A stretch of DNA of 50,555 nt from assembly GCA_008080735.1 (NCBI GenBank), contig SHMW01000023.1, positions 1 to 50,555 of the forward strand, given 5' to 3'. Positions 859 through 34,402 of the stretch are shown piece after piece. The translations under genes and the position numbers were made by a program. Under the pieces are notes generated by a model. That model was not told the origin of the DNA, searched no databases, and worked only from the letters and a program-made list of their open reading frames with translations. Source of the DNA: Promethearchaeota archaeon (lineage in GTDB: Archaea > Asgardarchaeota > Lokiarchaeia > Sigyniarchaeales > SOKP01). Every line of letters begins with the position of its first letter. Within the stretch, counting starts at the first letter, position 1.

Positions 859-2820
859 ATGGCAAAAAAACTGAAAAACCTATTCAAAAACATTTCAGAT
901 AATTCTAATCCTAATTCAAATTCCATACACCTTACAGATCCCGAAGTGCAAGAACGCATTACGAAACTTGAAAACCTCATCCGACACCACCGCGATTTAT
1001 ACTATAACAAGACACCCGAGATCAGCGACGCCAAATACGACCAACTCGAAGACGAGTTAAGGGAGTTGGACCCGACCAACCCGCTCCTATTCAAAGTAGG
1101 GCAAGACAGCAACCCGTTGTTTACCAAGACCGCACATATTATGCCGATGATGAGTCAAGACAAAGCCTCTACGCCCGAAGAGTTTGAAAAATGGGCAAAA
1201 AAGCGATACTATAACCAGTTTATCATCCAATACAAGCTCGACGGGATTTCAATCGAACTCCAATATAAGAGCGGTATCTTCCAGAAAGCGGTCAGCAGAG
1301 GAGACGGGAAAGTTGGGGATGATGTAACGGAGAATATCCTCAATGCGAAAGGCTTAGTCAAACACCTTCCCGACCGATTCACGGGAGCGGTCCGAGCGGA
1401 AGTCCTCCTCTTCCGGGACACTTTCGAGCAAAAATATTCAGACAATATGAACCCTCGCAACGCCGCCGCGGGTATTATCAGAAGGAAAGACCACAAAGGT
1501 AGCGACGACCTCAATCTCATTGTCTATGACGCGTGGGCTTCGGATAGTCAGATCACCTTTCACGACGAGATCCACAAGATTAAGTGGTTAGGGCAGCAAG
1601 GATTTGAGGTAGTCAAGACCAAAACCGTGCATACAATCCAAGAAGTCATCGAGACCCGCCAGGAGATCATCGACTCAATCCGCGATTCACTGAACTACGA
1701 GATCGACGGGTTAGTCATCAAAGGCAGAGAGATCGATAGAGAAGATATGAAACGGGCTAAGCCGGAATCCCAGATCGCATTTAAATTCCCCGCCGAGATG
1801 ATAGACTCCACACTAATCGACGTGGAATGGAGCGTCAGCGGAGCCAATTATACCCCCGTCGCAATAATCAAGCCCGTAGAGATCATGGGAAGCACCGTCC
1901 AACGAGCAAGTTTAGCAAACCCCGACATTATGAACGATCTCAAGGTCAAGATCGGCTCCAAAGTGATGGTATCTAAACGAGGAGACATCATCCCCAAGAT
2001 CGAATATGTAATCTCAACGCCCGAAGACGCAGAAGAGATTGTGATCCCAGCCCGATGCCAGGCCTGCGACTCCGAGCTAATCAACGAGGGGAGCCGCCTC
2101 TATTGTCCGAACGAGGACTGTCCCAACGTTAAATATCGGAGGATCGTTAAATGGATCAAAAAGAACGACATCAAACATTTTTCCGAGAAACTTATCCTCA
2201 GACCTCTGTTTGAAACTCAAAAGATTCATACGATTGCCGACCTCTATACCCTCAAAGTGTCCGACCTCACGAAACTGGAAGGGGTCCAAGAAAAGTCCGC
2301 CAAAAAAGCTCTGGACAACCTATTCGCGGTCACGGAGATCCCCTTAGAACGATTTATTGCGGGCTTCGAGATCGAGGGCTTGGGAGAGCGGATGGTCAAA
2401 AAAGCCGTGAAGGCGGGATACGACACATTAGAAGGCATCAAAAACGCTTCGGTAGGCGAGTTGTCGCAGATCGACGGATATGCCGAGATCACCGCAGAAG
2501 CCCTACAGCAAGGAGTAGAGAAATTATATCCCGAAATGGAACGACTCTTAGAGACCGGAAAGGTCACCATCGCCGCACCCGTCACCGAAGGCAGGCTCAA
2601 GGGACTCACTTTTTGTTTCACGGGCAAGCTCAATACGATGTCCAGAAAAGAAGCACAGGGGTTAGTAGAAAAACACGGAGGGGAGGCAAAAAGCAGCGTG
2701 ACCAAGAACCTCAGCTATTTAGTGACGAATTCAACAGAGCAAACCACCAAATACAAAAAGGCTCAAGCCCAAGGCACCGCCATCATCACCGAAGACCAAT
2801 TTTTAGCAATGCTCGAGTAA
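859..2820 (+). CDS. ligA: NAD+-dependent DNA ligase
   Basis: YYN...ISDAKYD domain Ia, KLDG adenylation motif, SRGDG, NPRNAAAG, EIDGLVIK, RGDIIP, Zn finger CQAC...CPNEDC, HhH repeats, C-terminal BRCT (FCFTGKL...GG). Confidence 0.97.
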   Translation: MAKKLKNLFKNISDNSNPNSNSIHLTDPEVQERITKLENLIRHHRDLYYNKTPEISDAKYDQLEDELRELDPTNPLLFKVGQDSNPLFTKTAHIMPMMSQDKASTPEEFEKWAKKRYYNQFIIQYKLDGISIELQYKSGIFQKAVSRGDGKVGDDVTENILNAKGLVKHLPDRFTGAVRAEVLLFRDTFEQKYSDNMNPRNAAAGIIRRKDHKGSDDLNLIVYDAWASDSQITFHDEIHKIKWLGQQGFEVVKTKTVHTIQEVIETRQEIIDSIRDSLNYEIDGLVIKGREIDREDMKRAKPESQIAFKFPAEMIDSTLIDVEWSVSGANYTPVAIIKPVEIMGSTVQRASLANPDIMNDLKVKIGSKVMVSKRGDIIPKIEYVISTPEDAEEIVIPARCQACDSELINEGSRLYCPNEDCPNVKYRRIVKWIKKNDIKHFSEKLILRPLFETQKIHTIADLYTLKVSDLTKLEGVQEKSAKKALDNLFAVTEIPLERFIAGFEIEGLGERMVKKAVKAGYDTLEGIKNASVGELSQIDGYAEITAEALQQGVEKLYPEMERLLETGKVTIAAPVTEGRLKGLTFCFTGKLNTMSRKEAQGLVEKHGGEAKSSVTKNLSYLVTNSTEQTTKYKKAQAQGTAIITEDQFLAMLE

Positions 2821-3179: not shown

Positions 3180-4361
3180 GTGATGGTTAAGGTGCGAAAA
3201 TTTTCTTTTTCCTATGGTTTTATAGGAGATGATTTAGGATTAAAAGAGAAAATTAGATTTAGTCTTTCCACGGAGGGAATGATAAATAATCTGGAATTTG
3301 ATGATTGCAAGGACCTAAAAATTAATTACAACCATCTCAACCACAATAAGATCATTTTACCCGGTCTAATAAACTCTCATGTCCATATCGGTGATAGTTT
3401 TGTAAAGGAAGCGGGATATAATAAAGGATTGATCGAAACCGTTGCACCTCCAGATGGGATAAAACATATACAATTAAAGCAAGGTAGGAGAAAGCAGAAG
3501 CTAAAAGGAATAAAAGAAGCGGCACGGGAAATGATTTCGAATGGGATCACTTGTTTTATTGACTTCCGGGAAAATAGCGTAGAAGGCATCAATTTACTAA
3601 AGAAAGCGCTAAATGAACAGCCGATAAAGTGTTTAATATTAGGTAGATTTACTCAAGCTGGTGAAATTAAAGAGATATTTAGAAATGCTGAAGGGATTGG
3701 TTTATCAAGTTATAGCAAAGTGGATAAAGAAATCTCAGCAATTATGGCGAGATATAAAAAAAAATATGACAAACTAGTGAGTTGCCATCATGCAGAATTA
3801 ATTCGAAAGCCAGAGCAATTTGAAAAACTAATTGAGGATGGTATAATTGATATTATCGTTCATGGAACACAATTGAATGCGACCGATCTGTATAAAATGC
3901 AACAATCGAATATAAAATTAATATTATGTCCTCGATGTAATGGCTATTTTGGAGTTGGATTCCCACCCATAGTAGAAGTTATAGACCAAAACATCCCAAT
4001 ATCCATTGGAACCGATAATATAATGGCAAATGCACCAAACCTGTTTGAGGAAATAAGATATCTTTACTTACTTTATAGAGTTCTGAATAATAGAACAAAT
4101 TCAAATTTCAGATTAGATGCGAAAAAACTATTGCAAATGATAACTATTAATGCTGCACAAAACTTTAATTTAGAAAATGAAATTGGATCCATTATGGAAG
4201 GAAAGCAAGCAGATTTTATTGTGATTGATTTGAATTCTTCAAATTATTATACCAATATTCTAGACCAAGATAATATCTATCCATTAATTGTTCAAAGAAC
4301 TACTCCAGAAAATATTAAAGAAGTTTATATTAAAGGTGAGAAGGTTTTTGAAAGATTATGA
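3180..4361 (+). CDS. Metal-dependent amidohydrolase, nucleobase/nucleoside deaminase-like
   Basis: PGLINSHVH (HxH), CHHAE (HxxE), IVHG, IGTDN, IGSI.EGKQADF. Confidence 0.88.
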   Translation: MMVKVRKFSFSYGFIGDDLGLKEKIRFSLSTEGMINNLEFDDCKDLKINYNHLNHNKIILPGLINSHVHIGDSFVKEAGYNKGLIETVAPPDGIKHIQLKQGRRKQKLKGIKEAAREMISNGITCFIDFRENSVEGINLLKKALNEQPIKCLILGRFTQAGEIKEIFRNAEGIGLSSYSKVDKEISAIMARYKKKYDKLVSCHHAELIRKPEQFEKLIEDGIIDIIVHGTQLNATDLYKMQQSNIKLILCPRCNGYFGVGFPPIVEVIDQNIPISIGTDNIMANAPNLFEEIRYLYLLYRVLNNRTNSNFRLDAKKLLQMITINAAQNFNLENEIGSIMEGKQADFIVIDLNSSNYYTNILDQDNIYPLIVQRTTPENIKEVYIKGEKVFERL

Positions 4362-5019
4362 AAAACCATATATCATTTTAAGCGCAGCAATGACTATTGA
4401 TGGGAGAATTGCTTCTAAGACAGGGGATCCCGAGCTTTCAGATGAGGAGGATTGGAAAGAAGTCCACAAACTAAGGACGGAAGTAGACGCGATTATGGTG
4501 GGAAAGGGAACCATTCTAAACGATAATCCAAAATTACATATTAAGTACTACGACCATAACGGATATTATCGAATTGTATTAGACAGCGATTTGAGCATTC
4601 CACTCCATTCAAAAGTATTTAATTACCAACCAGAACTCTATCCAACCCTCATTTGTACGACTAACCATATTCCCGAAGAAAAAGTTAGAAAATTTGAATC
4701 AAAAGAAAATGTAGAGGTCATAAAATGTGGTGAATCTGAAAAGGTGGATATATTGAAATTGATGCCTATCCTAAAGCAAAAAGGAATAAAAAAGATTCTC
4801 TTAGAAGGAGGAGGGACACTTAATTGGAGTTTTATCAAGAATAACCTAATTGATGAGTTGCGATTGACTATTGCTCCTTGGATTGTGGGAGGTAAGGATG
4901 CTATCAGTCTTGTCGAAGGTGTAGGTTTTAGTAAGATGGATGAAGCTCCAAGGTTTATGTTAGTCAATATTAAACATAGAAATAATTATGTAATTCTAGA
5001 ATACACAGCAATAAATTAA
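4348..5019 (+). CDS. arfC: 2,5-diamino-6-ribosylamino-4(3H)-pyrimidinone 5'-phosphate reductase (stand-alone RibD C-domain; ArfC/Rib7 type)
   Basis: KPYIILSAAMTIDGRIA, DAIMVGKGTIL.DNP.L, LLEGGGTLN, IAPWIVGG; no deaminase domain. Start reassigned to TTG 4348 (AGGTGA upstream), overlapping the previous gene. Confidence 0.9.
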   Translation: MKDYEKPYIILSAAMTIDGRIASKTGDPELSDEEDWKEVHKLRTEVDAIMVGKGTILNDNPKLHIKYYDHNGYYRIVLDSDLSIPLHSKVFNYQPELYPTLICTTNHIPEEKVRKFESKENVEVIKCGESEKVDILKLMPILKQKGIKKILLEGGGTLNWSFIKNNLIDELRLTIAPWIVGGKDAISLVEGVGFSKMDEAPRFMLVNIKHRNNYVILEYTAIN

Positions 5020-6143
5020 TGCGAAAAACCTTGAGAATTAAAGACTTATTAGTATTATCACTTACTCAGATACAAGATCGCGTGTTAAAGATTAGATCAG
5101 AGTTGAAAACGAAACAAAGACATATTATTACGTTCTCGAGAAACTATACACTCTCCTTATCGAATTATTGTCAAAATCAGTGTGGATATTGTTATTATAA
5201 TTATCTGATTCCTAAAAATTCAGGGGAGAAAAACACAATCCTATTATCTGAAAAGGAAATTGAGGGTAAGACTGAGATTGCCTTAAAATATGGGTGTACG
5301 GAAGCTCTGATCATGTCAGGCGAAAAACCAGACACCTTCCCGATGGTGCGGGAGCGTCTAAAGGAATATGGATTCAGAGAGTATATCGAATATGTACAAT
5401 ATATCTGTAAATTTTTATTAAAACAAAATATTCTTCCGCATGTAAACATTGGACTTTTGGATTTTCAAGAGATGAGATCTCTAAAAAATGACGTAGCAAG
5501 TATGGGTTTAATGCTCGAAAGTACTGATGAGGCTTTATGTAAAGAGGGAGCTGTTCATGAAGATTCACCTGGAAAAATACCGAGTTCAAGAATTGAACAT
5601 ATAGAGAGAGCGGGTGAACTTAAAATACCCTTTACCACCGGATTATTGTTGGGAATAGGAGAAACCATGGAAGACAGAATAAATGACCTATTCTTGATAA
5701 AAGAATTAAACAAAAAATATGGTCATATTCAAGAAGTTATCATTCAAAATTTTGTGAAAAAACCCTATATTTCTTATCAGCCGTCGAAAATTATCTCAAT
5801 TAAAGAGATGCTAAGGGTAGTGGGAATAGCTAAGATAATTTTTGAAAATGAGATTGCTTTGCAAGTACCTCCAAATTTAATTTCTGGATATGAAAAGGAC
5901 TTCTTACGAACAGGAATCGATGATTTTGGGGGGATAAGCCCCTTTACGATCGATTATATCAACCCAGAAGAAAGGTGGCCTCAAATCTCACAGTTAGCCA
6001 AAGTATGTAAAAAAAATGGATTTAATTTACAAGAGAGATTACCTATTTATGAGAAATTTATAGATAATGAGTCTTTCTGTCCCAATAATATACAAAAAAT
6101 CGTAAAATATAATAAAGAAAATGTTATTAAACAAAATCCTTGA
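5019..6143 (+). CDS. cofG: FO synthase subunit CofG (radical SAM)
   Basis: ITFSRN, CQNQCGYC, PHVNIG, SMGLMLES, IPFTTGLLLGIGE, HIQEVIIQNF, QVPPNL, DDFGGISP.T.DYINPE..WP. Confidence 0.93.
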   Translation: MRKTLRIKDLLVLSLTQIQDRVLKIRSELKTKQRHIITFSRNYTLSLSNYCQNQCGYCYYNYLIPKNSGEKNTILLSEKEIEGKTEIALKYGCTEALIMSGEKPDTFPMVRERLKEYGFREYIEYVQYICKFLLKQNILPHVNIGLLDFQEMRSLKNDVASMGLMLESTDEALCKEGAVHEDSPGKIPSSRIEHIERAGELKIPFTTGLLLGIGETMEDRINDLFLIKELNKKYGHIQEVIIQNFVKKPYISYQPSKIISIKEMLRVVGIAKIIFENEIALQVPPNLISGYEKDFLRTGIDDFGGISPFTIDYINPEERWPQISQLAKVCKKNGFNLQERLPIYEKFIDNESFCPNNIQKIVKYNKENVIKQNP

Positions 6144-7251
6144 TGATATAAAACCAGATATTAAGATTATCCTCGAGAAAAGCCTCAATAATATAGAAAT
6201 TAGTATACCAGAAGCGGTCCAACTATTAAAAATTACGGGAAAAGAGTTTTTAGCCCTACAAGCAACTGCAAACCAAATATGTTTTGAAAAGAAAGATAAT
6301 GTGGTTACGTTCGTTATAAATAGGAATATTAATTTCACCAATATTTGCCATCAGAATTGTAAATTCTGTTCTTTTAGTGTCCCGCAAAATGATTCTGAGG
6401 CATTTCTGCTATCAATTGATGAGATAGAAAAAAAAGTTCTTGAGGCGAATAAATTTGATATCTCAGAAGTATGTATCCAAGGAGGAATCAATCCCGAGCT
6501 CACGTTTGACTATTATTTGGATATTCTTAGAAAAGTGAAAGAAATTAATTCAGAAATTCATATTCACGCATTTTCTCCTCAAGAAGTCTATTATATGGCT
6601 AAATTATGTGATAAATCAATTAAAGAAACCCTCAAAGAACTTAAAAAAGCGGGATTAGATTCGATGCCGGGGACTGCCGCCGAAATCCTCGTGGATGATG
6701 TCAGAAAGATTATTTGTCCGAATAAGATTTCAACGAAACAATGGATCGAGATTATTAAAACAGCTCATATTATTGGTATACCAACCACATCAACGATGAT
6801 GTATGGACATATCGAATCATTAGAAGATCGAATTGAACATTTGAACATCTTACGAGATATCCAAAAAGATACACAAGGGTTTACGGAATTCGTACCGCTT
6901 CCGTTCGTGAAGAACAAACCCATATTATCACAACTGCCTGAAAGACCCCTTAAACCGAGTTATGGTATGGCAGATCTCAAATTATTTGCGGTGGCACGCC
7001 TTTTTTTGAACAATTTAATTGAAAATATTCAGTGTTCTTGGGTTAAATTAGGACCAAAATTTGCTCAAGTTTCTCTTAATTATGGTGTGAATGATTTTTC
7101 AGGCACATTGTTAGAGGAAAACATTTCGAAAAGTGCTGGGGCAGAATTTGGAGAATATTTATCTTCTGATGAGATAATTTCAATAATTAAAGAAGCAGGA
7201 AAGAAACCAGCTCAAAGAAATACTACTTATGAAATTCTTAAATATTATTAA
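6121..7251 (+). CDS. cofH: FO synthase subunit CofH (radical SAM)
   Basis: VTFVINRNINFTNIC...CKFCSF, HIHAFSPQE, SMPGTAAEIL, TSTMMYGHIE, FTEFVPLPF, IQCSWVKLG; adjacent to cofG. Confidence 0.92.
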   Translation: MLLNKILDDIKPDIKIILEKSLNNIEISIPEAVQLLKITGKEFLALQATANQICFEKKDNVVTFVINRNINFTNICHQNCKFCSFSVPQNDSEAFLLSIDEIEKKVLEANKFDISEVCIQGGINPELTFDYYLDILRKVKEINSEIHIHAFSPQEVYYMAKLCDKSIKETLKELKKAGLDSMPGTAAEILVDDVRKIICPNKISTKQWIEIIKTAHIIGIPTTSTMMYGHIESLEDRIEHLNILRDIQKDTQGFTEFVPLPFVKNKPILSQLPERPLKPSYGMADLKLFAVARLFLNNLIENIQCSWVKLGPKFAQVSLNYGVNDFSGTLLEENISKSAGAEFGEYLSSDEIISIIKEAGKKPAQRNTTYEILKYY

Positions 7252-7604: not shown

Positions 7605-9185
7605 TTATTCATCTTGAATATATGGTTTTGCAAATTTAAGGCACATTTCAGCCTTTTTTAACTCTCTTCCGAGATAATTAATATGAGTCAGATTCGTGGT
7701 TAATTTCAATTCAATTATTTTTTTCGATAAAAATTCGGCCTTCTGTCCGCTAAAACCATTCAAGAATTGATTTTTATTAGAATAAAATAAAACAAAAATT
7801 CTCTTTTTATAATGATCTACGTAGATTTTGAAATATCCTGCCTCATCTGCTCTATAATGAGTGTTTGGCCCTTTCACGTCCACAATATTCTCAATTGGTA
7901 AATCTGGAATTTCTTGAGAAGTCTTACCTTTTGCTTTGAAAACTTGCATTCCAATATTAATTGGTGGGGTATTTTTGTGTTTTGCAAGATAATTGAGCAT
8001 CATTGATTTTTTAAGTTCTTTCACACCTCCGAACATTTTTGTGCTATGCTCCACAGTGAATAAGATACCCATATCCAATTCAGCTGCGATACTTGCCAAT
8101 AAACCATTTATCCCTACTGAATCAACATCCATCAATTCCACCACGTTGGAGATTCCAAAAAACATGGGTAATTTTAATTCTTTATATTGTTTTTTCGAGC
8201 TAATTTGGGTATATAAATAATAAGCTTGAAGAGAATTGATAATTCCAGGAGAAATTGGCGTTTCGAGTAATGGGTCAGCGATTAATTTAGTAAATCCATG
8301 TGACTGTAATTTATCTGTTAAATCAAAAAGATTTTGTACTCGTGTCTGTGGATCTCTGGGAAAATATCCTTTGTTAATATTAGTGGGAAGGATCACAATC
8401 GGGATATCTCTAGGAATATCTAAAAAGGTTTCATAATTCCCTATGTCAAAACTTAGGATCATATCAATCCCTTCATCCACCGCGGCTAAAATTTCATCAC
8501 TATCCATAGAATCGATACTGATGAGTATGTTAAAATGATTATGAATCAATTTGATGATTTCTCGAACGCGATCTTGATTAGGTGCGTTTGCAATGCAACC
8601 AATATCTATTATATCTGCTCCAGATTCGATATAATGCGTTGTTTTTTTTAAGATAGACTCGTTGGATTTCTTCGGACAATTAACAATTTCAGCAATGATT
8701 GGAGGGGGCAATTCCTTTCCAATCATAACATCACTCTTGTCTTGATTTATAAAAAAAGTTTGAGTAGATATGTTATACATGGCTTTCTCGAGCATTTCTT
8801 TAAAGAGAGTTTTATGTTGTTCCGTTCCTGATGATTCAAATAATTGATTCGCGGGAATATTTGTTGAAAGATCAATGACTTCTAAGTTTTTTAAAATCAT
8901 CGGTAAATCCGAGGCAAATTCTGGACCTTTTCGAATAGGAATATTGAATTTTTCTTCTAATTCGGATGAATCCCACTGCACAAAACCGGGAAGGAGAATT
9001 AGGTCATAACCAGAGAGATTACGAGTGTTTATAGAATCCTTAACCATTTGAGGAGTGATAAATGCGGATATAGACACGGGCACTTTTACTATCTCAATTT
9101 GATGGGTTTGAATATTTTGAATAACCCCTTTTAGAATGGAATAACTCTGCGTTCCCGTTAGAATTAAGATTTTAATGCATATCAC
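7605..9185 (-). CDS. Dihydropteroate synthase-like pterin-binding protein (MJ0107/Orf20-like) with DUF4346-like C-terminus
   Basis: SAFITP..YDLILLPG..KGP N-domain; IIAEI, GADIIDIG, ISIDS, LIADPLL, FFGISNVVELMDVDSVGINGLLA; C-terminal D.AGYFKI...HINYLGRELKKAE.CL...YIQD. Confidence 0.85.
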   Translation of the reverse strand: MICIKILILTGTQSYSILKGVIQNIQTHQIEIVKVPVSISAFITPQMVKDSINTRNLSGYDLILLPGFVQWDSSELEEKFNIPIRKGPEFASDLPMILKNLEVIDLSTNIPANQLFESSGTEQHKTLFKEMLEKAMYNISTQTFFINQDKSDVMIGKELPPPIIAEIVNCPKKSNESILKKTTHYIESGADIIDIGCIANAPNQDRVREIIKLIHNHFNILISIDSMDSDEILAAVDEGIDMILSFDIGNYETFLDIPRDIPIVILPTNINKGYFPRDPQTRVQNLFDLTDKLQSHGFTKLIADPLLETPISPGIINSLQAYYLYTQISSKKQYKELKLPMFFGISNVVELMDVDSVGINGLLASIAAELDMGILFTVEHSTKMFGGVKELKKSMMLNYLAKHKNTPPINIGMQVFKAKGKTSQEIPDLPIENIVDVKGPNTHYRADEAGYFKIYVDHYKKRIFVLFYSNKNQFLNGFSGQKAEFLSKKIIELKLTTNLTHINYLGRELKKAEMCLKFAKPYIQDE

Positions 9186-10276
9186 TCCGTATTTTCTTTC
9201 TTAAAAGGAATATAAATATCATCTAAGATCGACCCAGATGATTCTTTAATCTTCATGTTTTCTATAATAGGAGAATATTTACCTCCCAATAACCCATTTG
9301 CGATAAACGCTGCGCCTTGAGCAGCTCTTTTTGCGATTTGACTATAAGAATTCATTAATCTTACAGGAGCCACATCCGATAAGGATTTAATTACCTTTTC
9401 CTTTAAATAGGGAATTTCCGCACCCCTCCCTGCAAGTAAAATCTCTTTTATTTTGTTTTTTGCAGAAAAAGAGGAGGAAATTCCAAATACTGCCTTTTTC
9501 ACGCTTGAGAGATAGGCTTTAAATGCTTTTTTCGTTTGTTGATCTTTTTCTGCTAAGATGGTAATTTCCTTTAGACTTAAATCACTATACCCAGAAATAT
9601 AGGCCACACCACCTTTATATATATTTTTTTTCTCAATATGTTTAATTAAATAGGCTAATTCTCCATCTAAACTTCCACACGCTCGAAAGCCCATAATATT
9701 AGAACCCCCAATACCATCTACGATTTGCCCATTCTCGATGGCGAGTACGGCTGTAAAGCCATAACCAATTTCCACCATAATAAAATTGGTTTCAGATGGA
9801 GGAAGGCTAAATTTTTCGCATTGATCTTTAATACCCGTAACAGAGGTACAGAGCTTATCTGCAGTGCCCATATCTATTTTATTGATTTTGTAATATTCTG
9901 GAACTGTAGATAAATGTTTTACCCCAGGCACGATCACTCCAGGAATATCTATATTTTTCAGTAAGCGTAAAATTTCACCAAGTCCTACCAATTTATTTTT
10001 CTCCTCAGCCTTAAATTTCAATAAAGTTAGAAAAAGATCTCGTTCAGTCAATTCCTTTACTTTCTTTAAGGGCAACCCGAAGCCAGAAGGGGCTGTAAAA
10101 AGGTCGATTGTTTCTCTTTGATTTAAAGACTCGATTATATTTAATACTTTTATCGGCTCTCGCATCAAATCTTTTGTCGGAAGCGAGAGATCTAATATAA
10201 TATTATCTCCCTTAATTCCAAGAAAATCCCAACTTTTCGAACCAGGATCAATACCTAAAACAGTTTTCTTTTCCAT
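9182..10276 (-). CDS. DUF1464 family ASKHA-fold (acetate/butyrate kinase-like) protein
   Basis: GIDPGSKSWD, APSGFGLP, PGVKHL.TVP...K.NKIDMGTADK, VEIGYGFTA, IVDGIGG, G.LDGELAYL, AAQGAAFIANGL.GG; overlaps downstream gene by 4 nt. Confidence 0.85.
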   Translation of the reverse strand: MEKKTVLGIDPGSKSWDFLGIKGDNIILDLSLPTKDLMREPIKVLNIIESLNQRETIDLFTAPSGFGLPLKKVKELTERDLFLTLLKFKAEEKNKLVGLGEILRLLKNIDIPGVIVPGVKHLSTVPEYYKINKIDMGTADKLCTSVTGIKDQCEKFSLPPSETNFIMVEIGYGFTAVLAIENGQIVDGIGGSNIMGFRACGSLDGELAYLIKHIEKKNIYKGGVAYISGYSDLSLKEITILAEKDQQTKKAFKAYLSSVKKAVFGISSSFSAKNKIKEILLAGRGAEIPYLKEKVIKSLSDVAPVRLMNSYSQIAKRAAQGAAFIANGLLGGKYSPIIENMKIKESSGSILDDIYIPFKKENTE

Positions 10277-11890: not shown

Positions 11891-14380
11891 ATGAGTAATG
11901 CACAATCTGATTCTGGAAAGGATAAATTTGACATCGCGAGACCTCATGATCTTCTACCTCGCTCTGCATGGCTACGGGAATATTATTTTAAAGGAGCTGA
12001 GCGTGAATGGAATAATGAATACATGGCATTTACAACGGGTGTAGAATGGGATATTGTATGGGAGGAAATGAATTATTATGTGGCGCCTGAAGTCATTATG
12101 TATATTGGCGTAGACGGGAAAGGCGTGTTTGAAACTTCACTCAGATCCATCGCTGAGCGAGTAGAGCTCCCGGAAAATTTTTGGGATCTTTCGCTACCTG
12201 AAAGAAAAATCGAATTTTTTGAAAGAGTTATGCTTGATTATATCCCCCAAGAGATTATTTCCGACAATGATTTAATCGCGGGAGGGAGGTTTAATACACA
12301 ATTGAGCAATTGCTTAAATGAAAAGGAGACGAAACAATATTGGAAAGAAATCCTAAGAAATCGTCATGAATATTTAAAATTCCATTACGCTGGATTTGGG
12401 AACGTAGGTGCCACTGGAGGTCATTTAATTCCTGACCTTGAGGGTGTTGTTAAAAGAGGATTCAAATATTATCATCAAAAAGCTAAAGATACCTACAAGA
12501 GATTGACCGATAAGGAAAAAAAGGGCGCAAAAGGGCAAGAACTTCGTGCTATAATAAATGCTACATTAATACCTAAAAAACTTGCTGCTAAATATGCTGA
12601 AGAATGTCGGAATTTAAAAAAGGACGCATCACCAGAGAGAGCAGAAGAACTAGAGCAAATGGCTCGGAATTTAGAAAGGGTTCCTTGGGAACCAGCCGAA
12701 ACGTTTTGGCAAGGAGTGCAAGCCATATGGTTGACTCATATGCTAATAATGGCTGAAGAGTCATATCCAGGCCCAGGTGTATCATTTGGTAGAACGGATC
12801 AACATCTTTGGGAACTCTACAAAAAAGATGTGCTAGATGAGAAAAATATCACAAAGAATTTTGCCAAAGAAATACTTGGAAGCTTCTGGTTTCATTGCAA
12901 TACTGCCTATGATGCACAGATACGCGTTGGCAGGCAGGGAATCACATCTGCTTTTGGACAACTTATGACATTATCTGGATGTGGTCCAAACGGAGAGGAT
13001 TTAACCAACGACTTAACTTATACGATCTTAGAGGTGATTGACGAGTGGTCTCCGATTTTAGAACCAAAACCCAATATAAGATTACACAGAAATTCTCCAA
13101 ATAAGCTTTTAGATATTTTAATTGAAATGATTTCAAGATCGCAAGGTTCACCATTTCTAATTAATTTTGACGAAAGAAGCATAGCGGGGATGATAGGAGA
13201 AGGGATACCCGAGAATGAGGCGTGGGATTATGCGTGTGTAGGTTGCCTTGAGAATACCATGCAGGGCAACGATCGATCTGGTACGGTTAATTGTAATCCC
13301 AATTTAGCAAAAAGCATCGAATTAACTCTATGGAACGGTGAAATAATGCCTGAAAACGGGAAAAAGCCATGGTCGAAAGAAGGAGAGCGATTTGGTCCAA
13401 AGACAGGAGGTCCTGAACAATTTAAAACTTGGGAGGAATTCTGGGAGGCTTGGAAAGCTCAAATAGAGTTTATCATCCAGTATGTCGTTAGAGTAAATAA
13501 TTTAACAGAAGAAACGAGAGGAAGATTTTTGCCTACACCCTATTTATCATCTATTGTAAAAGGATGTATTGAAAAAGGGATTGATATAAGAAACGGTGGA
13601 CCGGAATTACGCTTTGTTACAATCGAAGGCGTCTCTTTTGCGACTGTTGTTGATTCATTGTTGGCAATTAAACATTTTGTTTATGATGAGGGGAAATATA
13701 CAATTGAACAGATAAAAGAAGCGTTGTTGCATAATTTTGAAGGAGAATATGCTGTAATGCAGACGATTTTAAAAAATAAAGCACCTAAATATGGAAACGA
13801 TAGGGATAAAGCTGATGAGTTAGCAAGGAAAGTGATGAAAGTTTGGTCAGATGAAACGTGGAAATATACAACTCCTACTAATTTTCAATACAGACCTGGG
13901 ATGCTTTCATGGAATTATTGGGCAGGTGAGGCAGCAGCCTTGACCCCCGCTACTCCAGATGGAAGGAAGGCAGGAACCTATTTATCAAATGCGATATGTC
14001 CTACAGATGGAGTTGATACAAAAGGGCCAACAGCAGTCACTAATTCCGTTGGAAAAGCACTCGGTGGCAAAACAGAGGATGGTCAATATATAAATTACCT
14101 TCCAAATGGAGCCAGCCATACCATCACCTTCAATCCGAGCATACTTAGAGATGCCGAGCATCGAGACAAATTCAGGTCGTATCTAAGGGGTTATATAGAA
14201 AATGGGGGAACATGTTTACAGATAAATATGTTAGATTCTGAAATGTTAAAAGACGCGCAAAAACACCCTGAGAATTACGAGAATTTGTTAGTGAGAGTGA
14301 CCGGTTATAATGCTTACTTTAATGCCATAGGGAAAGAGCTTCAGGATGAGATAATAGCAAGAGAATCACATAAAATGTAG
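11891..14380 (+). CDS. Glycyl radical enzyme of unknown substrate (PFL-like superfamily)
   Basis: C-terminal LLVRVTGYNAYF glycyl loop, YACVGCLEN thiyl loop, SFGRTDQ, PKYGND, ATPDGRKAG, LQINM. Confidence 0.95.
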   Translation: MSNAQSDSGKDKFDIARPHDLLPRSAWLREYYFKGAEREWNNEYMAFTTGVEWDIVWEEMNYYVAPEVIMYIGVDGKGVFETSLRSIAERVELPENFWDLSLPERKIEFFERVMLDYIPQEIISDNDLIAGGRFNTQLSNCLNEKETKQYWKEILRNRHEYLKFHYAGFGNVGATGGHLIPDLEGVVKRGFKYYHQKAKDTYKRLTDKEKKGAKGQELRAIINATLIPKKLAAKYAEECRNLKKDASPERAEELEQMARNLERVPWEPAETFWQGVQAIWLTHMLIMAEESYPGPGVSFGRTDQHLWELYKKDVLDEKNITKNFAKEILGSFWFHCNTAYDAQIRVGRQGITSAFGQLMTLSGCGPNGEDLTNDLTYTILEVIDEWSPILEPKPNIRLHRNSPNKLLDILIEMISRSQGSPFLINFDERSIAGMIGEGIPENEAWDYACVGCLENTMQGNDRSGTVNCNPNLAKSIELTLWNGEIMPENGKKPWSKEGERFGPKTGGPEQFKTWEEFWEAWKAQIEFIIQYVVRVNNLTEETRGRFLPTPYLSSIVKGCIEKGIDIRNGGPELRFVTIEGVSFATVVDSLLAIKHFVYDEGKYTIEQIKEALLHNFEGEYAVMQTILKNKAPKYGNDRDKADELARKVMKVWSDETWKYTTPTNFQYRPGMLSWNYWAGEAAALTPATPDGRKAGTYLSNAICPTDGVDTKGPTAVTNSVGKALGGKTEDGQYINYLPNGASHTITFNPSILRDAEHRDKFRSYLRGYIENGGTCLQINMLDSEMLKDAQKHPENYENLLVRVTGYNAYFNAIGKELQDEIIARESHKM

Positions 14381-14396
14381 ATAGGCATAATAAGGG

Positions 14397-15416
14397 ATGG
14401 AATTAATGACAGAAGATACAAATAATAAGGCTCTTGTCTTTGAAATACAGAAAATGTCAACGGAAGATGGACCAGGAATAAGAACAACAGTGTTCCTTAA
14501 ACATTGTCCCTTAAAATGTATATGGTGCCATAATCCGGAGTCTATAGAAAAAAAGTCCGTGCTTGAATGGTTAAAACATAAATGCATAGGATGTAAAATA
14601 TGTATAGATACATGTAAACAATCAGCCCTATATTTCGATGAACATGGATTACATATTGATCGGAATAAATGTATAAGTTGCGGAGAATGCGTTGAGGAAT
14701 GCCCCAGTACTGCGCTTCATATGTTTGGCACATGGTGGGAATTAGAAGATTTATTTCATGAAGTCAATAAAGACAGAGTGTATTATCTCAAATCTGGAGG
14801 TGGGGTCACCGTGTCTGGTGGAGAACCAACCTTGCAATCTGGATTTGTTATAAATTTTCTAAAAAAATGTAAAGAAAATGCAATCTCAACCGCTTTAGAT
14901 ACTTGCGGATATGCATCTAAAAAAGTCTATGAGAACCTTTTACCGTACGTTGATCTTATTCTTTTAGATATAAAAGAAATCGATTCCGAAAAGCATAAAA
15001 AATTTACGGGGGTGTCCAATGAAAAAATACTGGAAAATGCCAAATGGATTGCGCAATATGCAAAAAATAATGGGAAGAGATTATGGATTAGGACCCCTTT
15101 AATCCCAAAATATACCGCGACAGAAGCGAATATTAAGGGAATAGGTGAATTTATTATCAATGAATTGGATAATTTTCCCGAACGATGGGATCTGCTTTCA
15201 TTTAATAATCTTTGCATAGACAAATACAAACGACTTGATCTGGATTGGGAATTGAAGGAAATAAATCTTATGAGAAGAGCAGAGATAGAAAAATTGTATA
15301 GTATTGCGAAAGACACTGGAGTAAAGAATGTTCAATGGTCTGGACTCACTAAAAATGAAGAGAATTCTGGAAATTCAGTGAGTCAGGCAAATAAAACGAA
15401 ATTACCATCCTGTTAA
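14397..15416 (+). CDS. Glycyl-radical activating enzyme with 2x[4Fe-4S] insert
   Basis: EDGPGIRTTVFLKHCPLKCIWCHNPES, CIGCKICIDTC, CISCGECVEECP, GVTVSGGEP, DTCG. Confidence 0.95.
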   Translation: MELMTEDTNNKALVFEIQKMSTEDGPGIRTTVFLKHCPLKCIWCHNPESIEKKSVLEWLKHKCIGCKICIDTCKQSALYFDEHGLHIDRNKCISCGECVEECPSTALHMFGTWWELEDLFHEVNKDRVYYLKSGGGVTVSGGEPTLQSGFVINFLKKCKENAISTALDTCGYASKKVYENLLPYVDLILLDIKEIDSEKHKKFTGVSNEKILENAKWIAQYAKNNGKRLWIRTPLIPKYTATEANIKGIGEFIINELDNFPERWDLLSFNNLCIDKYKRLDLDWELKEINLMRRAEIEKLYSIAKDTGVKNVQWSGLTKNEENSGNSVSQANKTKLPSC

Positions 15417-18009: not shown

Positions 18010-18771
18010 ATGGATAGCGGTAAAAAAGGAGGGATGGATAATTTCTGTTTGAAAAAAAATTATTTATATGAAATTTTAGCTACAACTTTTTTTTGGGATG
18101 ATTTTTCAAAAAAGAATGTCTATAATACTTCTTGTATGGGTATACAAGTTTTAAGCAATGATTCAATCACAATCAAACCTTATCCAACCACTCAAACCTA
18201 TAAAAATCTCGAAAAGAACGGTTTTATAATCCTAAATTTCGTTGATAATATCTATTATTATGCTTTAGCAGCATTAAAATCACCCCAATCAAATAGAAAT
18301 ATCAAAAAATTTCCCAAAAGGTATTATTCTTTTAAGAAAGATCAAACACTACATTCTATTCTACAATTTTACTCAGATAAATTGAAAGGTGGGATAAATC
18401 AAATACCCTATATAAAAAATGCTTGGGGAATAATTATAGGTTTCGTGGTTGATTCGGAACTTATAGCGAAAAAAAGCGATTTGGGAACAACTCAATTAAC
18501 CCAATTCATAATTAAACCGATCTTATCAGAGTTATTAAGAAAATCATATCATTTATATAATAGAGCAGAAAATTTAGCGTTAGAGATGATAATTTTAGCA
18601 ACTCGATTAAAGGTTGCGTTTGAACGAGGGGATAAAAAAGTAATTCATTCAATTAAAAAAAAAATAGCGAATTACGAAAGTGATATTAACCGATTCAGTC
18701 AAAATAAGCAAGTTTTTAAAACTATAGAAGTGATAAAGGATTACTGCTCCCAATTTATACAAATCTTTTAA
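18010..18771 (+). CDS. DUF447-like protein (flavin-binding split barrel plus helical C-domain)
   Basis: YLYEILATT, NTSCMGI, T.TYKNL..NGFIILNFVDNIYYYALAAL, NRAENLALE.IILATR; start may be ATG 18034. Confidence 0.75.
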   Translation: MDSGKKGGMDNFCLKKNYLYEILATTFFWDDFSKKNVYNTSCMGIQVLSNDSITIKPYPTTQTYKNLEKNGFIILNFVDNIYYYALAALKSPQSNRNIKKFPKRYYSFKKDQTLHSILQFYSDKLKGGINQIPYIKNAWGIIIGFVVDSELIAKKSDLGTTQLTQFIIKPILSELLRKSYHLYNRAENLALEMIILATRLKVAFERGDKKVIHSIKKKIANYESDINRFSQNKQVFKTIEVIKDYCSQFIQIF

Positions 18772-19192: not shown

Positions 19193-20194
19193 CTAATCAA
19201 GAATTTCATATCTTGCTCCTTCGTTATTGGGTTTACATATATAAAAATGTCCAATGTGATTAAGCCGAGATTTGAGTGCGTCTAATAACTCTTTTGCTCT
19301 TGAATCAGATTCCGTGATTCCCACAACGCTAGGGCCAAATGAACTCATCCCATAAGCTTTAACACCTAAATCACCCATAAAATTAAGCAAATCTTTCACT
19401 ATTTTATCTTGCAAGCCTATCTCGATCTTTTTGAATCCAATAGATTGTATTCGGCGTAGTCCCTCTCCAAAAATTGATAAATCTCTCTTTAATATTCCTG
19501 GAATTATTTTCATGAGTATTTGATGGGACACCTCATTAACTTCTTCTCTTGGGATAGGAGTATGTTTTTGAAAAATTGAGACTTCCTCATCTCCATATGC
19601 GCCCTTTCTTACATTGGGAATAACTAAAACAAATCGCCAATGTTCGGGAATATTATATCTAAATATTGTAAGCGCAGGATCCGCGGAACTTGAGGCAGAT
19701 GAAGGGAGAAATGTTTCTTTTTCTTTTCCAATCCCAAAATCGTGTCCTCCATCTAGAATAAATCCGCCACTTTTAAATCCGCGCCAACCGATCCCCGACG
19801 TGCCACCTCTTCCAACAATATTGGTAAGTGTTTCATGAGAAATGTCGAGATCTTTTAATTTTGCAATGGCTGAAGCGATAGCTAATGATAATTGGGTTTT
19901 GCTCCCTAGACCAACATGGGAGGGATAATATTGTCTTAGATAAAAATGAAAATTCTTATTGCTAATATCGAGAGTTTTAAACACTTTTGAAGCTTTTTCA
20001 TTGATCACTTCAATGGATTCCCTATAATATTGATGTGCTTCAATCTTAAATTCTTTGGCGGAATTGCTTGCTTCAAAGACCACATTTGGTTTATCGAGCA
20101 TCAGACCAATTCCACCATCGACTCGTCCAGTATAACCGTTCTCGTCAATTAGCGATAGATGGATGCGACATGGAGTAGTAATTTTGATCTTCAA
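19193..20194 (-). CDS. mptG: beta-ribofuranosylaminobenzene 5'-phosphate synthase
   Basis: TPCRIHLSLID, RVDGGIG, HVGLGSKTQL, GRGGTSGIG, GGFILDGGH, FLPSSAS, GMSSFGP. Confidence 0.93.
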   Translation of the reverse strand: MKIKITTPCRIHLSLIDENGYTGRVDGGIGLMLDKPNVVFEASNSAKEFKIEAHQYYRESIEVINEKASKVFKTLDISNKNFHFYLRQYYPSHVGLGSKTQLSLAIASAIAKLKDLDISHETLTNIVGRGGTSGIGWRGFKSGGFILDGGHDFGIGKEKETFLPSSASSSADPALTIFRYNIPEHWRFVLVIPNVRKGAYGDEEVSIFQKHTPIPREEVNEVSHQILMKIIPGILKRDLSIFGEGLRRIQSIGFKKIEIGLQDKIVKDLLNFMGDLGVKAYGMSSFGPSVVGITESDSRAKELLDALKSRLNHIGHFYICKPNNEGARYEILD

Positions 20195-31244: not shown

Positions 31245-32132
31245 TTAGATACTGGCAAATACAAAAGCTAATAAACCTAAAAATGCTCCAATTTTTAATA
31301 ATAGGCTGATCCTACTAAAACTTTTCTTTTCCAAATCGCAAATTAATGAGAGTCCCAGCGCGAGCATAACTACTGCAAGACCAAATAGCATGGAAATAAT
31401 GAACGCCCAAAGATTAATAATATTTGTAAAAATAGGCAAAACAAAGAAGATGACAGCAAGAACATCACATACAATAGACACGTACAGGGCTTTTTGAATC
31501 CCGATGGTTATAGCTAATGTTTTGACACCCTCTCTTTTATCTCCCTCTATATCTTCACAACCCTTCACAATCTCACGCGCTAACAATAAGAAGAATGATG
31601 TAAGGAAAAAATAATAAATATAGAGCGGAACGTTATAGCCATTTAAAATTGCCCCGTATAGCAATCCGATTGAAAAGGACACACTTACGATAATATTTCC
31701 GATAAATCCACTCTTTTTTCCCCATGCAGCATACAGCCATCCAATCAAAGCAAAGAATATGGCTACCACTATATTAATAAATCCTAAATTCAGAAGCCAA
31801 CTATGAAAAATTGATAATAAAATACCAATAAACATTATTCCCAGATATAAATATTTTGCTTCCTTTAAGGTTAAATCTCCTCGTGGAATTGGTCTTTCTG
31901 GACGATTAATTCTATCGATTTCTACGTCATAGATATCATTAATAACCATCCCGCTTCCCGCGATAAGGATATAAGTAAGAACCCCAATTATGAGGTTTAA
32001 TATCAGATTCAATAACGGAACTTCTTTTCTCGTATTTAGAACCCCAATTATGACAGTCAAACTTCCCATAAGACAATTTATAGGTCGAATAACCTCTATG
32101 GCAGCTTTCGCTTTCAATTCATTCACCCTCAA
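31245..32132 (-). CDS. Digeranylgeranylglyceryl phosphate synthase (UbiA family)
   Basis: IRPINC, NDIYDVEIDRINRPERPIPRG, REIVKGCEDIEGD..EGVKTL; next to GGGPS. Confidence 0.9.
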   Translation of the reverse strand: MRVNELKAKAAIEVIRPINCLMGSLTVIIGVLNTRKEVPLLNLILNLIIGVLTYILIAGSGMVINDIYDVEIDRINRPERPIPRGDLTLKEAKYLYLGIMFIGILLSIFHSWLLNLGFINIVVAIFFALIGWLYAAWGKKSGFIGNIIVSVSFSIGLLYGAILNGYNVPLYIYYFFLTSFFLLLAREIVKGCEDIEGDKREGVKTLAITIGIQKALYVSIVCDVLAVIFFVLPIFTNIINLWAFIISMLFGLAVVMLALGLSLICDLEKKSFSRISLLLKIGAFLGLLAFVFASI

Positions 32133-32141
32133 AAAGAGATA

Positions 32142-32978
32142 TTATTTTTTAGCATAATTTTTGCTATGATGCTTTCCAACGTTTTTAATTTCATCGATAA
32201 TTGGTTTTAGCGATTCACCATTATCGTCTAGTACTTTTTTTTCGATAAATGTGCCCATAACGATGATGTCTGCTCCCGCTTCGACAAATTCTCTAGCATC
32301 TTCTTTATTTTGAACTCCTCCACCAGCGATTATTGGCACTGATAACACTCGTGAGGTAAGCGAGATGTGTTTTGTAGGTATTCTATCACCACCAGAACCA
32401 GCTTCAAGATAAATCAGTTTAAAACCAAACATTTCTGCTGCTAGAGCATATGCCGCAGTGATTTTCGGTTTATTCCTTGGAATTAATTTTGCATCTCCAA
32501 TCCAGCCCGCACTCGCGCCAGGCTCTATTATTAAATATGCCATTGGGATATGTTCCAATCCAGACATCTTCACAGTATAGCACGCCATCGCTTGCTGCCC
32601 TATTATAAAATAAGGATTTTTAGAATTCAACAATGACATGAATAATATTGCATCTGCATGTGAAGAGACGCATGAAATACCCCCGGGAAAGATGATTATA
32701 GGCGTCTCTATTTTATCCTTAATTTTACATATAGTCTTATCGACAAATCCTTGATCAAAGGCGGTACTTCCACCAATTAGGATAGCATCTGTGCCAGCCT
32801 TTTCCGCATACGAAGCCATCTTAGCGGCTTTCGAGGGACTCTGATTCATAGGATCTGGGTCTATGAGGGAGAAATGCAGAGCTCCTTCCTTATTGATTTT
32901 TTCTATTAAATAATTATAAATTAAGCCTTCTCTAGCACTTTTTCCATTCAATATAGTATCAACCATATTAATTATCAC
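32142..32978 (-). CDS. Geranylgeranylglyceryl phosphate synthase
   Basis: HFSLIDPD, DAILIGGS, IFPG, FMSLLNS.NPYFI, YLEAGSG, AGGG; start probably ATG 32966. Confidence 0.93.
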   Translation of the reverse strand: MIINMVDTILNGKSAREGLIYNYLIEKINKEGALHFSLIDPDPMNQSPSKAAKMASYAEKAGTDAILIGGSTAFDQGFVDKTICKIKDKIETPIIIFPGGISCVSSHADAILFMSLLNSKNPYFIIGQQAMACYTVKMSGLEHIPMAYLIIEPGASAGWIGDAKLIPRNKPKITAAYALAAEMFGFKLIYLEAGSGGDRIPTKHISLTSRVLSVPIIAGGGVQNKEDAREFVEAGADIIVMGTFIEKKVLDDNGESLKPIIDEIKNVGKHHSKNYAKK

Positions 32979-33001
32979 TTGTAATTGATTGTTTATTATT
33001 T

Positions 33002-34402
33002 TTATTTTTCTTTTGCTTCAATTACCATCCGCTTTATTTTCGAATAGATTTCCTTCACTCTGTCTTTCCAATCTTCAAAATATGTAACTTTTTTTGGAAA
33101 TGCTTTATACAAACTATTAATTTCATTCATTCGAATTCTTAAATAATTCAAATCTAATAATAGATTCGGACGTGAGATTCCCTTAAATGCCTTAAAGGCC
33201 ATATCCCATAATGAGAGACTTACTTCTCCCGTGCCCGCGATCTGGAGGATTTCTGATGCGGTCAGAATCTCTTTTTCAAGTCCAAAATTCAAATCCACAT
33301 TACCTAAACTCTGTAGGACTCTTCTGAGTAGATCAAGCGCCGCAAACTCTGCTCCAAAATCAATCATGACCTTTCTATTGTAATCCCAAAGCTGAATTAT
33401 GGAATAATCTCCCGCTTGTATAGCGTCATATGCCGTTTGAGCAGCGAAATATCCTCCCCGCATGGAAGGATCTATGCCTCCGCCATGTAAAGGGCTCACT
33501 TGACACGCTGAATCCCCAACAAACATAATTCCGTCAGAAGCGCAAGACCATAAAGGACGTCGAACAGGAACAACACCTCCACCAGATGAGACAATTTCTA
33601 TATCAGTTGTATGAACGAATTCTTTAAAGGCATACTCTTTATAATACTCTTTCACTTTACCTCCGAATTTTGGATATACTCCCAGTCCGAGATTAATTGA
33701 ATATCGGTCTTTAGGGAAGTACCATATGTAGCCTCCAGGGGCTTTCTCTTGATCTAAAATAATGGAAATATATTCTTGATCTTGAACCTCTTGATCGCGA
33801 GCAGGAAATTTAATTATTTCCCGATAACATAAAATAGCGTCTTCATCGGAGATCTCTTTTTCAATTATTGGACTTTCAATTTTTTTGCGTAAAGGGGAAT
33901 AATACCCGCACGCATCAATCACTAATTTAGAGTGTAACTCATGCTCACTCCCATCTTTAGTTTTTACTTTTACACCTGAGACATAACCGTTAGAATCATA
34001 AAGAAGGTCTAAGGCCATAGTGTGATCCAAAAAGGAGTTCACCCCCGCATTGAGGGCCTCTTGGAGTAAACGCTGTCCAAACTCAAACCTATCCACGATA
34101 TAACCCGTTTGTTTTGGATCTATCATTGTAATACATTTTTGACGGTTTGGAGGATAGAGTTTTGCTCCCTTAATATCGCACGATTTTTCTTTACCGCTTG
34201 GTGGGGAAATCTGAAGAATATCGAATATTTCTTTACCTACAGCATCTCCGCAAATTTTTTTGCCAATATCATATCGCTCTTTTCTGTCTATTAAGCATAC
34301 GTCTAGGGCTTTTTTGGCAGCGAATCGGGCGGCCGTAGTACCGCCAGTACCAGCACCACAAATAATTAAATCAAATTCAGTTTTTTCAAGTTCCATTTTC
34401 AA
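33002..34402 (-). CDS. Geranylgeranyl reductase family flavoprotein
   Basis: GAGTGG, KICGD, PGGYIWYFP, VGDSA.QV.PLHGGGI. Confidence 0.92.
   Translation of the reverse strand: MKMELEKTEFDLIICGAGTGGTTAARFAAKKALDVCLIDRKERYDIGKKICGDAVGKEIFDILQISPPSGKEKSCDIKGAKLYPPNRQKCITMIDPKQTGYIVDRFEFGQRLLQEALNAGVNSFLDHTMALDLLYDSNGYVSGVKVKTKDGSEHELHSKLVIDACGYYSPLRKKIESPIIEKEISDEDAILCYREIIKFPARDQEVQDQEYISIILDQEKAPGGYIWYFPKDRYSINLGLGVYPKFGGKVKEYYKEYAFKEFVHTTDIEIVSSGGGVVPVRRPLWSCASDGIMFVGDSACQVSPLHGGGIDPSMRGGYFAAQTAYDAIQAGDYSIIQLWDYNRKVMIDFGAEFAALDLLRRVLQSLGNVDLNFGLEKEILTASEILQIAGTGEVSLSLWDMAFKAFKGISRPNLLLDLNYLRIRMNEINSLYKAFPKKVTYFEDWKDRVKEIYSKIKRMVIEAKEK

Follow-up and report, generated by a model that had tools for sequence, protein, structure and literature searches.

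An MJ0699-type amidohydrolase, the predicted archaeal pyrimidine deaminase of riboflavin and F420 synthesis, is encoded with arfC, cofG and cofH in an Asgard archaeon

Introduction

Archaea apparently lack orthologs of RibD's deaminase domain (Rodionova et al. 2017, PMC5397151); according to the same paper, Osterman, Overbeek and Rodionov (2010) put forward "PyrD", a pyrimidine deaminase specific to Archaea, from gene clustering and co-occurrence, and it remains to be tested. HVO_2483 and MJ0699 were named as that candidate by Pfeiffer et al. (2021, PMC8305020), who asked for experimental confirmation, and a 2026 review of riboflavin enzymology names no archaeal deaminase. Here we analyze a 50,555-nt stretch of DNA (the window), which is contig C23 of a 4.1-Mb metagenome-assembled genome (MAG) of an Asgard archaeon (Loki/Promethearchaeota-type; 93% complete, 7% contamination). 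It carries a gene for an MJ0699-type amidohydrolase followed by arfC, cofG and cofH. This amidohydrolase is, very probably, the archaeal C2-deaminase of 2,5-diamino-6-ribitylamino-4(3H)-pyrimidinone 5'-phosphate, a prediction that rests on the identities and overlaps of the genes, on the catalytic residues and the fold, and on MJ0699 orthology together with conserved linkage and co-occurrence.

The closest described system is the MJ0699/HVO_2483 family itself (NCBIfam model NF005552; the SEED role; "PyrD"), which has the same catalytic residues, a similar length, the same arfC partner and the same predicted reaction. On the other hand, the gene described here is the first of an operon with arfC, cofG and cofH, and since its genome gave no match to ribB or ribH, it would serve F420 only. 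RibD of bacteria and Rib2 of fungi have a deaminase domain that belongs to the same pathway, and the amidohydrolase would do the same C2 deamination; however, the two folds are unrelated (a cytidine-deaminase fold with zinc in RibD/Rib2, a TIM-barrel amidohydrolase here). Moreover, the amidohydrolase probably acts after reduction of the side chain, like Rib2, whereas RibD acts before it.

Results

Four genes overlap in series

The four genes run on the forward strand (Table 1), and their serial overlap, which the first-pass annotation of this DNA had described, was borne out by the list of open reading frames (ORFs) and by the junctions as read in the sequence: i) the stop codon of the amidohydrolase gene (TGA, 4359-4361) lies past the TTG (4348) of the reductase gene, giving a 14-nt overlap (4348-4361); ii) at TAATG (5017-5021), one base is common to the reductase stop and the cofG ATG; iii) cofG and cofH overlap by 23 nt (6121-6143), with the cofH ATG at 6121 and the cofG stop at 6141-6143. 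The open frame of the reductase spans 4288-5019 in the ORF list, and its start is most likely the TTG at 4348, as judged from the N-terminus MKDYEKPYIILSAAMTIDGR, with GTG 4336 and TTG 4288 as alternatives.

The reductase scored 213 bits on TIGR01508 (archaeal ArfC; cut-off 186) and 171.8 bits on RibD_C. A Pfam domain search found no deaminase domain in it, so that the earlier description of a reductase lacking such a domain holds. CofG (395 bits on NF004884; 372 bits on TIGR03550, cut-off 213) and CofH (471 bits on NF005609; 466 bits on TIGR03551, cut-off 374) were above the cut-offs of both their models.

In the proposed pathway, the genes at 3180-7251 would be a single operon with translational coupling, by which a pyrimidine derived from GTP is turned into FO, the deazaflavin chromophore of F420. 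ArfC would reduce the ribosyl side chain of 2,5-diamino-6-ribosylamino-4(3H)-pyrimidinone 5'-phosphate, and the amidohydrolase would then hydrolyze the C2 amino group to yield 5-amino-6-ribitylamino-2,4-pyrimidinedione 5'-phosphate. The substrate and the deaminase activity are those predicted for the family, and reduction before deamination is the order suggested by the biochemistry of Methanocaldococcus jannaschii. The putative active site would hold one metal ion, with H67, H69, H228 and D279 as ligands and H203/E206 as proton shuttle. After dephosphorylation by an enzyme not encoded at this locus, CofH and CofG would condense the product with tyrosine to form FO.

The amidohydrolase belongs to the MJ0699 family and has the deaminase set of residues

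The amidohydrolase matched Pfam Amidohydro_1 at 146.8 bits; its best NCBIfam match was NF005552 (PRK07213, "chlorohydrolase") at 268 bits, with the next family ~160 bits lower (109 bits). It was 36% identical to MJ0699 (UniProt Q58110) over 335 aa (E 7e-51). The family was traced to Methanocaldococcus via a profile search that returned 369 cluster representatives at E <= 1e-30, one of them from Methanotorris igneus; according to an accession check, the relatives of this representative include the cluster with AAB98692.1 / Q58110 ("Uncharacterized protein MJ0699"), a sister cluster of which bears the SEED name "Pyrimidine deaminase archaeal predicted". The closest recorded proteins were Asgard "amidohydrolase family proteins" (50-87% identity). 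Judged by these matches, the protein is an ortholog of MJ0699 and adds an Asgard member to a family that had already been predicted.

The HxH/HxxE/H/D set that the first-pass annotation had pointed out was confirmed as H67-x-H69, H203-x-x-E206, H228 and D279. These six residues were invariant in 22 Asgard homologs and in 14 pan-archaeal homologs (from Asgard, Thaumarchaeota, Methanococcales, Methanobacteriales, Methanomicrobia, Halobacteria, Sulfolobales and Acidilobaceae). Their places in the TIM barrel are those of the superfamily's single-metal deaminases, with HxH on strand 1, HxxE on strand 5, and the His and the Asp on strands 6 and 8, respectively. Also invariant in the 14 pan-archaeal homologs were D72, K95, R130, E131, R156, C250, N280 and R373, and the family-specific ones among them (D72, K95, R130, E131, R156, C250 and R373) may bind the ribityl phosphate.

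The AlphaFold model of the protein had a predicted local distance difference test (pLDDT) value of 88.8 and a predicted TM-score (pTM) of 0.91. Its nearest folds were COG0402 deaminases (TM-score 0.72-0.82, Foldseek probability 1.00), including 5'-methylthioadenosine (MTA)/adenosine deaminases, AtzA, guanine deaminase and isocytosine deaminase; no structure of the MJ0699-type family itself was found in the PDB. With such enzymes (guanine deaminase 2UZ9, isocytosine deaminase 7WW2, MTA/S-adenosylhomocysteine (SAH) deaminase TM0936 1P1M, AtzA 4V1X), the protein shares the fold, the metal ligands and the HxxE motif, but just 14-20% identity, and the family has invariant residues of its own. Guanine and isocytosine deaminases take off the 2-amino group of a 2-amino-4-oxopyrimidine, the same kind of group that the amidohydrolase is predicted to remove.

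A Pfam search found no cytidine-deaminase-fold zinc domain (PF00383) in the amidohydrolase. Elsewhere in the genome, three genes of this fold were present: one is TadA-like, one is dCMP-deaminase-like, and the third is a short ORF within a phage-like region. None of them was linked to flavin genes. Thus the check for a RibD/Rib2-type enzyme found no RibD-type deaminase in a flavin context in the source genome.

The constant partner of the amidohydrolase is arfC

Among 78 related loci from public genomes of Asgard, Bathyarchaeia and Thaumarchaeota, arfC lay directly 3' of the amidohydrolase gene on the same strand in 77, the single exception being cut by a contig end; the linkage is therefore conserved in three archaeal groups. 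The order amidohydrolase-arfC-cofG-cofH was found in 46 of the 48 Asgard loci (the source locus counted), and of the two deviating loci one had an insert between cofG and cofH and the other lacked cofH. Such recurrence indicates that the arrangement is not due to chance.

Outside this order, the gene kept company with riboflavin genes. All 29 Thaumarchaeota loci (30-33% protein identity) had arfA-amidohydrolase-arfC, 28 of them with ribB-ribH in front, and no cofG or cofH match was found in the flanks retrieved (up to 8 kb per side). The Bathyarchaeia locus also read arfA-amidohydrolase-arfC, and one Asgard genome (G038) had ribB-ribC-ribH-arfA-amidohydrolase-arfC-creatininase. Thus the constant partner is arfC and not the radical-SAM pair, which fits a deaminase of the trunk pathway and not a scavenger of by-products.

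Co-occurrence showed the same pattern in a phylum sample of 81 Asgard genomes: a strong amidohydrolase match was present in 32, all of which had arfC, and one further genome (78% complete) had arfC only. The pair occurred in families with cofG (f1, f3, f4, f7, f18 and f21), with ribB (f3, f7, f14, f16 and f18) or with both, and was not found in the ten Asgard families of this sample lacking both ribB and cofG. In f16 the two genes were unlinked and yet co-occurred. Two fusion proteins were also found: P0154 (636 aa, from a Promethearchaeota MAG), in which the amidohydrolase is fused to RibD_C, in parallel with the deaminase-reductase fusion of RibD, and P0243 (542 aa), in which a creatininase (ArfB-type) domain is fused to the amidohydrolase. 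A search with P0154 found no second amidohydrolase-RibD_C fusion.

The earlier suggestion that the amidohydrolase fills the step between the reductase and FO synthase is supported by the MJ0699 orthology, the arfC linkage and the co-occurrence; the idea was already in the literature.

Evidence against the deaminase role, and rival roles

Several points weigh against a C2-deaminase role: i) The score of 268 bits on NF005552 is below the curated cut-off of 294, whereas MJ0699, a Thaumarchaeal copy and an Asgard f18 copy scored 589, 321 and 323 bits respectively. However, the 33 matches to this model in 41 sampled genomes of the source genome's own family were all between 150 and 283 bits, and therefore the cut-off misses this whole Asgard clade. 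ii) Neither a canonical ArfB nor any of the GTP cyclohydrolases I, IB, II and III was found in the 93%-complete assembly, which leaves the source of the ArfC substrate unexplained. iii) Related genomes are not independent, so that the counts above overstate the support, and co-occurrence is taken here for a pattern rather than a statistic. iv) The fusions are single sequences and lend weak support, since the genes overlap and an indel or a sequencing error could create a fusion. v) No assay of any MJ0699-family member was found in the searchable literature, and the first-pass annotation was right to call the archaeal deaminase not firmly assigned.

The first-pass annotation had offered as its alternative a DadD-like enzyme that clears 5'-deoxyadenosine, the inhibitory radical-SAM by-product of CofG and CofH. 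DadD (MJ1541), the 5'-deoxyadenosine deaminase, is of the same superfamily and is tied to radical-SAM metabolism; the fold and the catalytic set are common to the amidohydrolase, DadD and the MTA/SAH deaminases, and here the gene shares an operon with two radical-SAM genes. However, DadD is a separate family: on its model NF005557 the amidohydrolase scored 84.6 bits (cut-off 522), over the C-terminal half only, while a 475-aa DadD/MtaD-like paralog is encoded elsewhere in the source genome (contig C40; 198 bits on NF005557, 242 bits on NF004701). Moreover, the conserved partner is arfC rather than cofG and cofH, as the Thaumarchaeota riboflavin operons illustrate (no cofG or cofH match in flanks of up to 8 kb), and Asgard families f16 and f14 have the amidohydrolase without cofG. 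The DadD-like role was therefore rejected, and we consider it extremely improbable.

Another hydrolytic step of the same pathway is unlikely, though less so than a DadD-like role: the amidohydrolase might, for example, deformylate the formylamino-pyrimidine in place of ArfB, or use as substrate a triphosphate or ribosyl form made by a type I cyclohydrolase. Such a role would suit a genome in which no gene reached more than 28 bits on the canonical ArfB model (NF033501, cut-off 180), a superfamily which includes amide hydrolases, and the creatininase-amidohydrolase fusion P0243, which shows closeness to the deformylation step. On the other hand, the invariant HxxE glutamate and the single-metal ligands are those of the deaminase subtype, the G038 riboflavin operon has both an amidohydrolase and a creatininase-family gene, the source genome has a creatininase homolog of its own (on contig C90, 35% identical), and deamination would still be without an enzyme. 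It is very unlikely that the amidohydrolase deaminates some unrelated base or nucleoside (guanine, cytosine or a pterin) and is adjacent to arfC merely by inherited gene order. The nearest solved relatives do use such substrates, and synteny inside one genome family is not independent evidence; yet the adjacency spans three distant archaeal groups at 30-35% protein identity, the unlinked genes of f16 still co-occur, and the gene was not found in Asgard families lacking both ribB and cofG. Deamination of the ribitylamino-pyrimidinone phosphate thus remains the preferred role.

The branch appears to serve F420 only

The source genome had no match to ribB, ribH or archaeal riboflavin synthase, but it encodes a winged-helix riboflavin kinase/regulator, RbkR; therefore the branch appears to serve F420 only. 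Riboflavin salvage combined with de novo FO synthesis is the likeliest arrangement. Eight of ten genomes of the source family (91-100% complete) likewise kept amidohydrolase-arfC-cofG and missed ribB and cyclohydrolases II and III. What is new here is that the source genome and most of its family are without ribB, ribH and cyclohydrolases II/III (as well as canonical ArfB in the source genome, the only one searched for it), so that the branch appears devoted to F420. Families f4 and f21, on the other hand, mostly had cyclohydrolase II with the operon and mostly lacked ribB. A scan of the window for the RbkR operator (TTAC-N10-GTAA) gave 30 one-mismatch matches against 22 +/- 5 expected, no exact match and nothing convincing before the operon.

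As for the first step, relatives have a gene for a type I GTP cyclohydrolase in the slot immediately upstream of the amidohydrolase. MptA/FolE2, divergently oriented, was in that slot in 36 of the 48 loci and in ~27 of the 34 family genomes having the amidohydrolase. FolE, on the same strand, took its place in six loci (53-98 bp upstream where measured, ~400 bp in G019) and, among the sampled family genomes, in just the two that lack MptA. In the Thaumarchaeota, as in Asgard families f3, f7 and f18, that slot is taken by cyclohydrolase III. In f16, amidohydrolase, arfC and ribB were present and FolE was found in all four genomes, with no cyclohydrolase II, III or MptA found; in the control genome, Methanosarcina acetivorans, MptA was present and neither cyclohydrolase II nor III was found. 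As for the source genome, tblastn with the relatives' proteins and Pfam models found neither MptA nor FolE. In addition, GTP cyclohydrolase II was observed in seven of nine f6 genomes and all three f12 genomes, which showed no arfC, MJ0699-type amidohydrolase, ribB or cofG.

One tentative reading, which we hold to be possible but doubtful, is that in Loki-type Asgard archaea and in f16, where neither cyclohydrolase II nor III was found, a type I cyclohydrolase (MptA/FolE) feeds the pyrimidine from which FO (in f16 also riboflavin) is made. The reaction of such an enzyme passes through formylamino- and diamino-ribosylaminopyrimidinone intermediates, one of which ArfC, perhaps helped by a creatininase-type formamidase, would capture before the pterin forms. 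Alternatively, MptA may sit in the slot owing to the adjacent methanopterin genes (a dihydropteroate synthase (DHPS)-like gene, DUF1464, DUF447 and a GHMP kinase). This explanation is favored by the observation that MptA adjoins the operon even in genera having cyclohydrolase III.

As for deformylation, the three creatininase-family genes of the source genome had no cyclohydrolase beside them (their neighbors were transporters, a peptidase, a chaperonin and a TetR regulator). One of them (C90, 7536-8300) is the homolog of the creatininase ending the G038 riboflavin operon. Together with the creatininase of P0243, which likewise does not match the canonical ArfB model, it is suggestive of a second kind of formamidase in the flavin pathways of Asgard archaea. 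There is a bacterial parallel: in Sinorhizobium and Brucella a creatininase-type formamidase is needed, and the upstream cyclohydrolase has not been identified (PMC9478397).

Neighboring genes and the start of the contig

Downstream of cofH, the small ABM-domain gene is possibly a fifth gene of the operon; in 22 of the 48 Asgard loci a homolog (cluster 12) was found past cofH and ahead of the DHPS-like gene, which is convergent. The DHPS-like gene and DUF1464 were kept as a pair beside the operon in most Asgard loci, and the GHMP kinase near the FO operon may be similar to ribofuranosylaminobenzene 5'-phosphate (RFAP) synthase. In at least 31 related loci, a ubiquitin-like set (ubiquitin-domain protein, ThiF-type E1, UQ_con E2 and JAB deubiquitinase) lay just past mptA (for example L009, 819-5683); this set was absent from the window.

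The first 3.1 kb of the contig (1-3140), with ligA and a BRCT remnant, had 46-52% G+C, against 30-37% for the operon and the rest. The change falls ~40 bp before the start of the amidohydrolase gene, where relatives carry mptA. This stretch may be a foreign insertion or a chimeric contig end; that no mptA or folE was found in the assembly may be due to loss, to an assembly gap or to such a chimeric end.

Table 1. Genes of the predicted FO operon and other features of the window
Feature	Position	Strand	Remarks
MJ0699-type amidohydrolase, predicted "PyrD"	3180-4361	+	start GTG 3180 or ATG 3183
ArfC-type reductase (2,5-diamino-6-ribosylamino-4(3H)-pyrimidinone 5'-phosphate)	4348-5019	+	RibD_C domain only
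cofG, FO synthase radical-SAM subunit	5019-6143	+	NF004884, TIGR03550
cofH, FO synthase radical-SAM subunit	6121-7251	+	NF005609, TIGR03551
Small ABM-domain protein, 100 aa	7290-7592	+	Pfam ABM 39.5 bits; 38 nt past cofH
Methanopterin-type genes: DHPS-like (TIGR00284, pterin-binding C-terminal domain), DUF1464, DUF447, GHMP kinase	7605-10276; 18010-18771; 19193-20194	-; +; -	
Glycyl-radical enzyme (pyruvate formate-lyase-like, 829 aa) and radical-SAM activase directly downstream	11891-15416	+	
Lipid genes in a row: UbiA prenyltransferase, PcrB/geranylgeranylglyceryl phosphate (GGGP) synthase family, geranylgeranyl reductase	31245-34402	-	ordinary archaeal
Bacterial-type NAD-dependent ligA	859-2820		
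BRCT remnant, 52 codons	2975-3133		54% identical to LigA BRCT, residues 578-625

Discussion

C2 deamination is the one step of archaeal riboflavin/F420 synthesis for which no assayed enzyme was found in the literature, and therefore reconstructions of the pathway in methanogens, ammonia oxidizers and Asgard archaea rest on prediction. The deaminase candidate is not new: it has been in print since 2010, so that the present locus is a well-supported rediscovery and leaves the state of knowledge on the deaminase unchanged. As for the missing first step, most genomes of the source family, as well as M. acetivorans, show no cyclohydrolase II or III. On the other hand, the locus offers a clean case, in which riboflavin is apparently imported while the reductase and the candidate deaminase are kept in the FO operon. 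Such placement ties the reductase-deaminase pair to the shared pathway trunk rather than to riboflavin itself.

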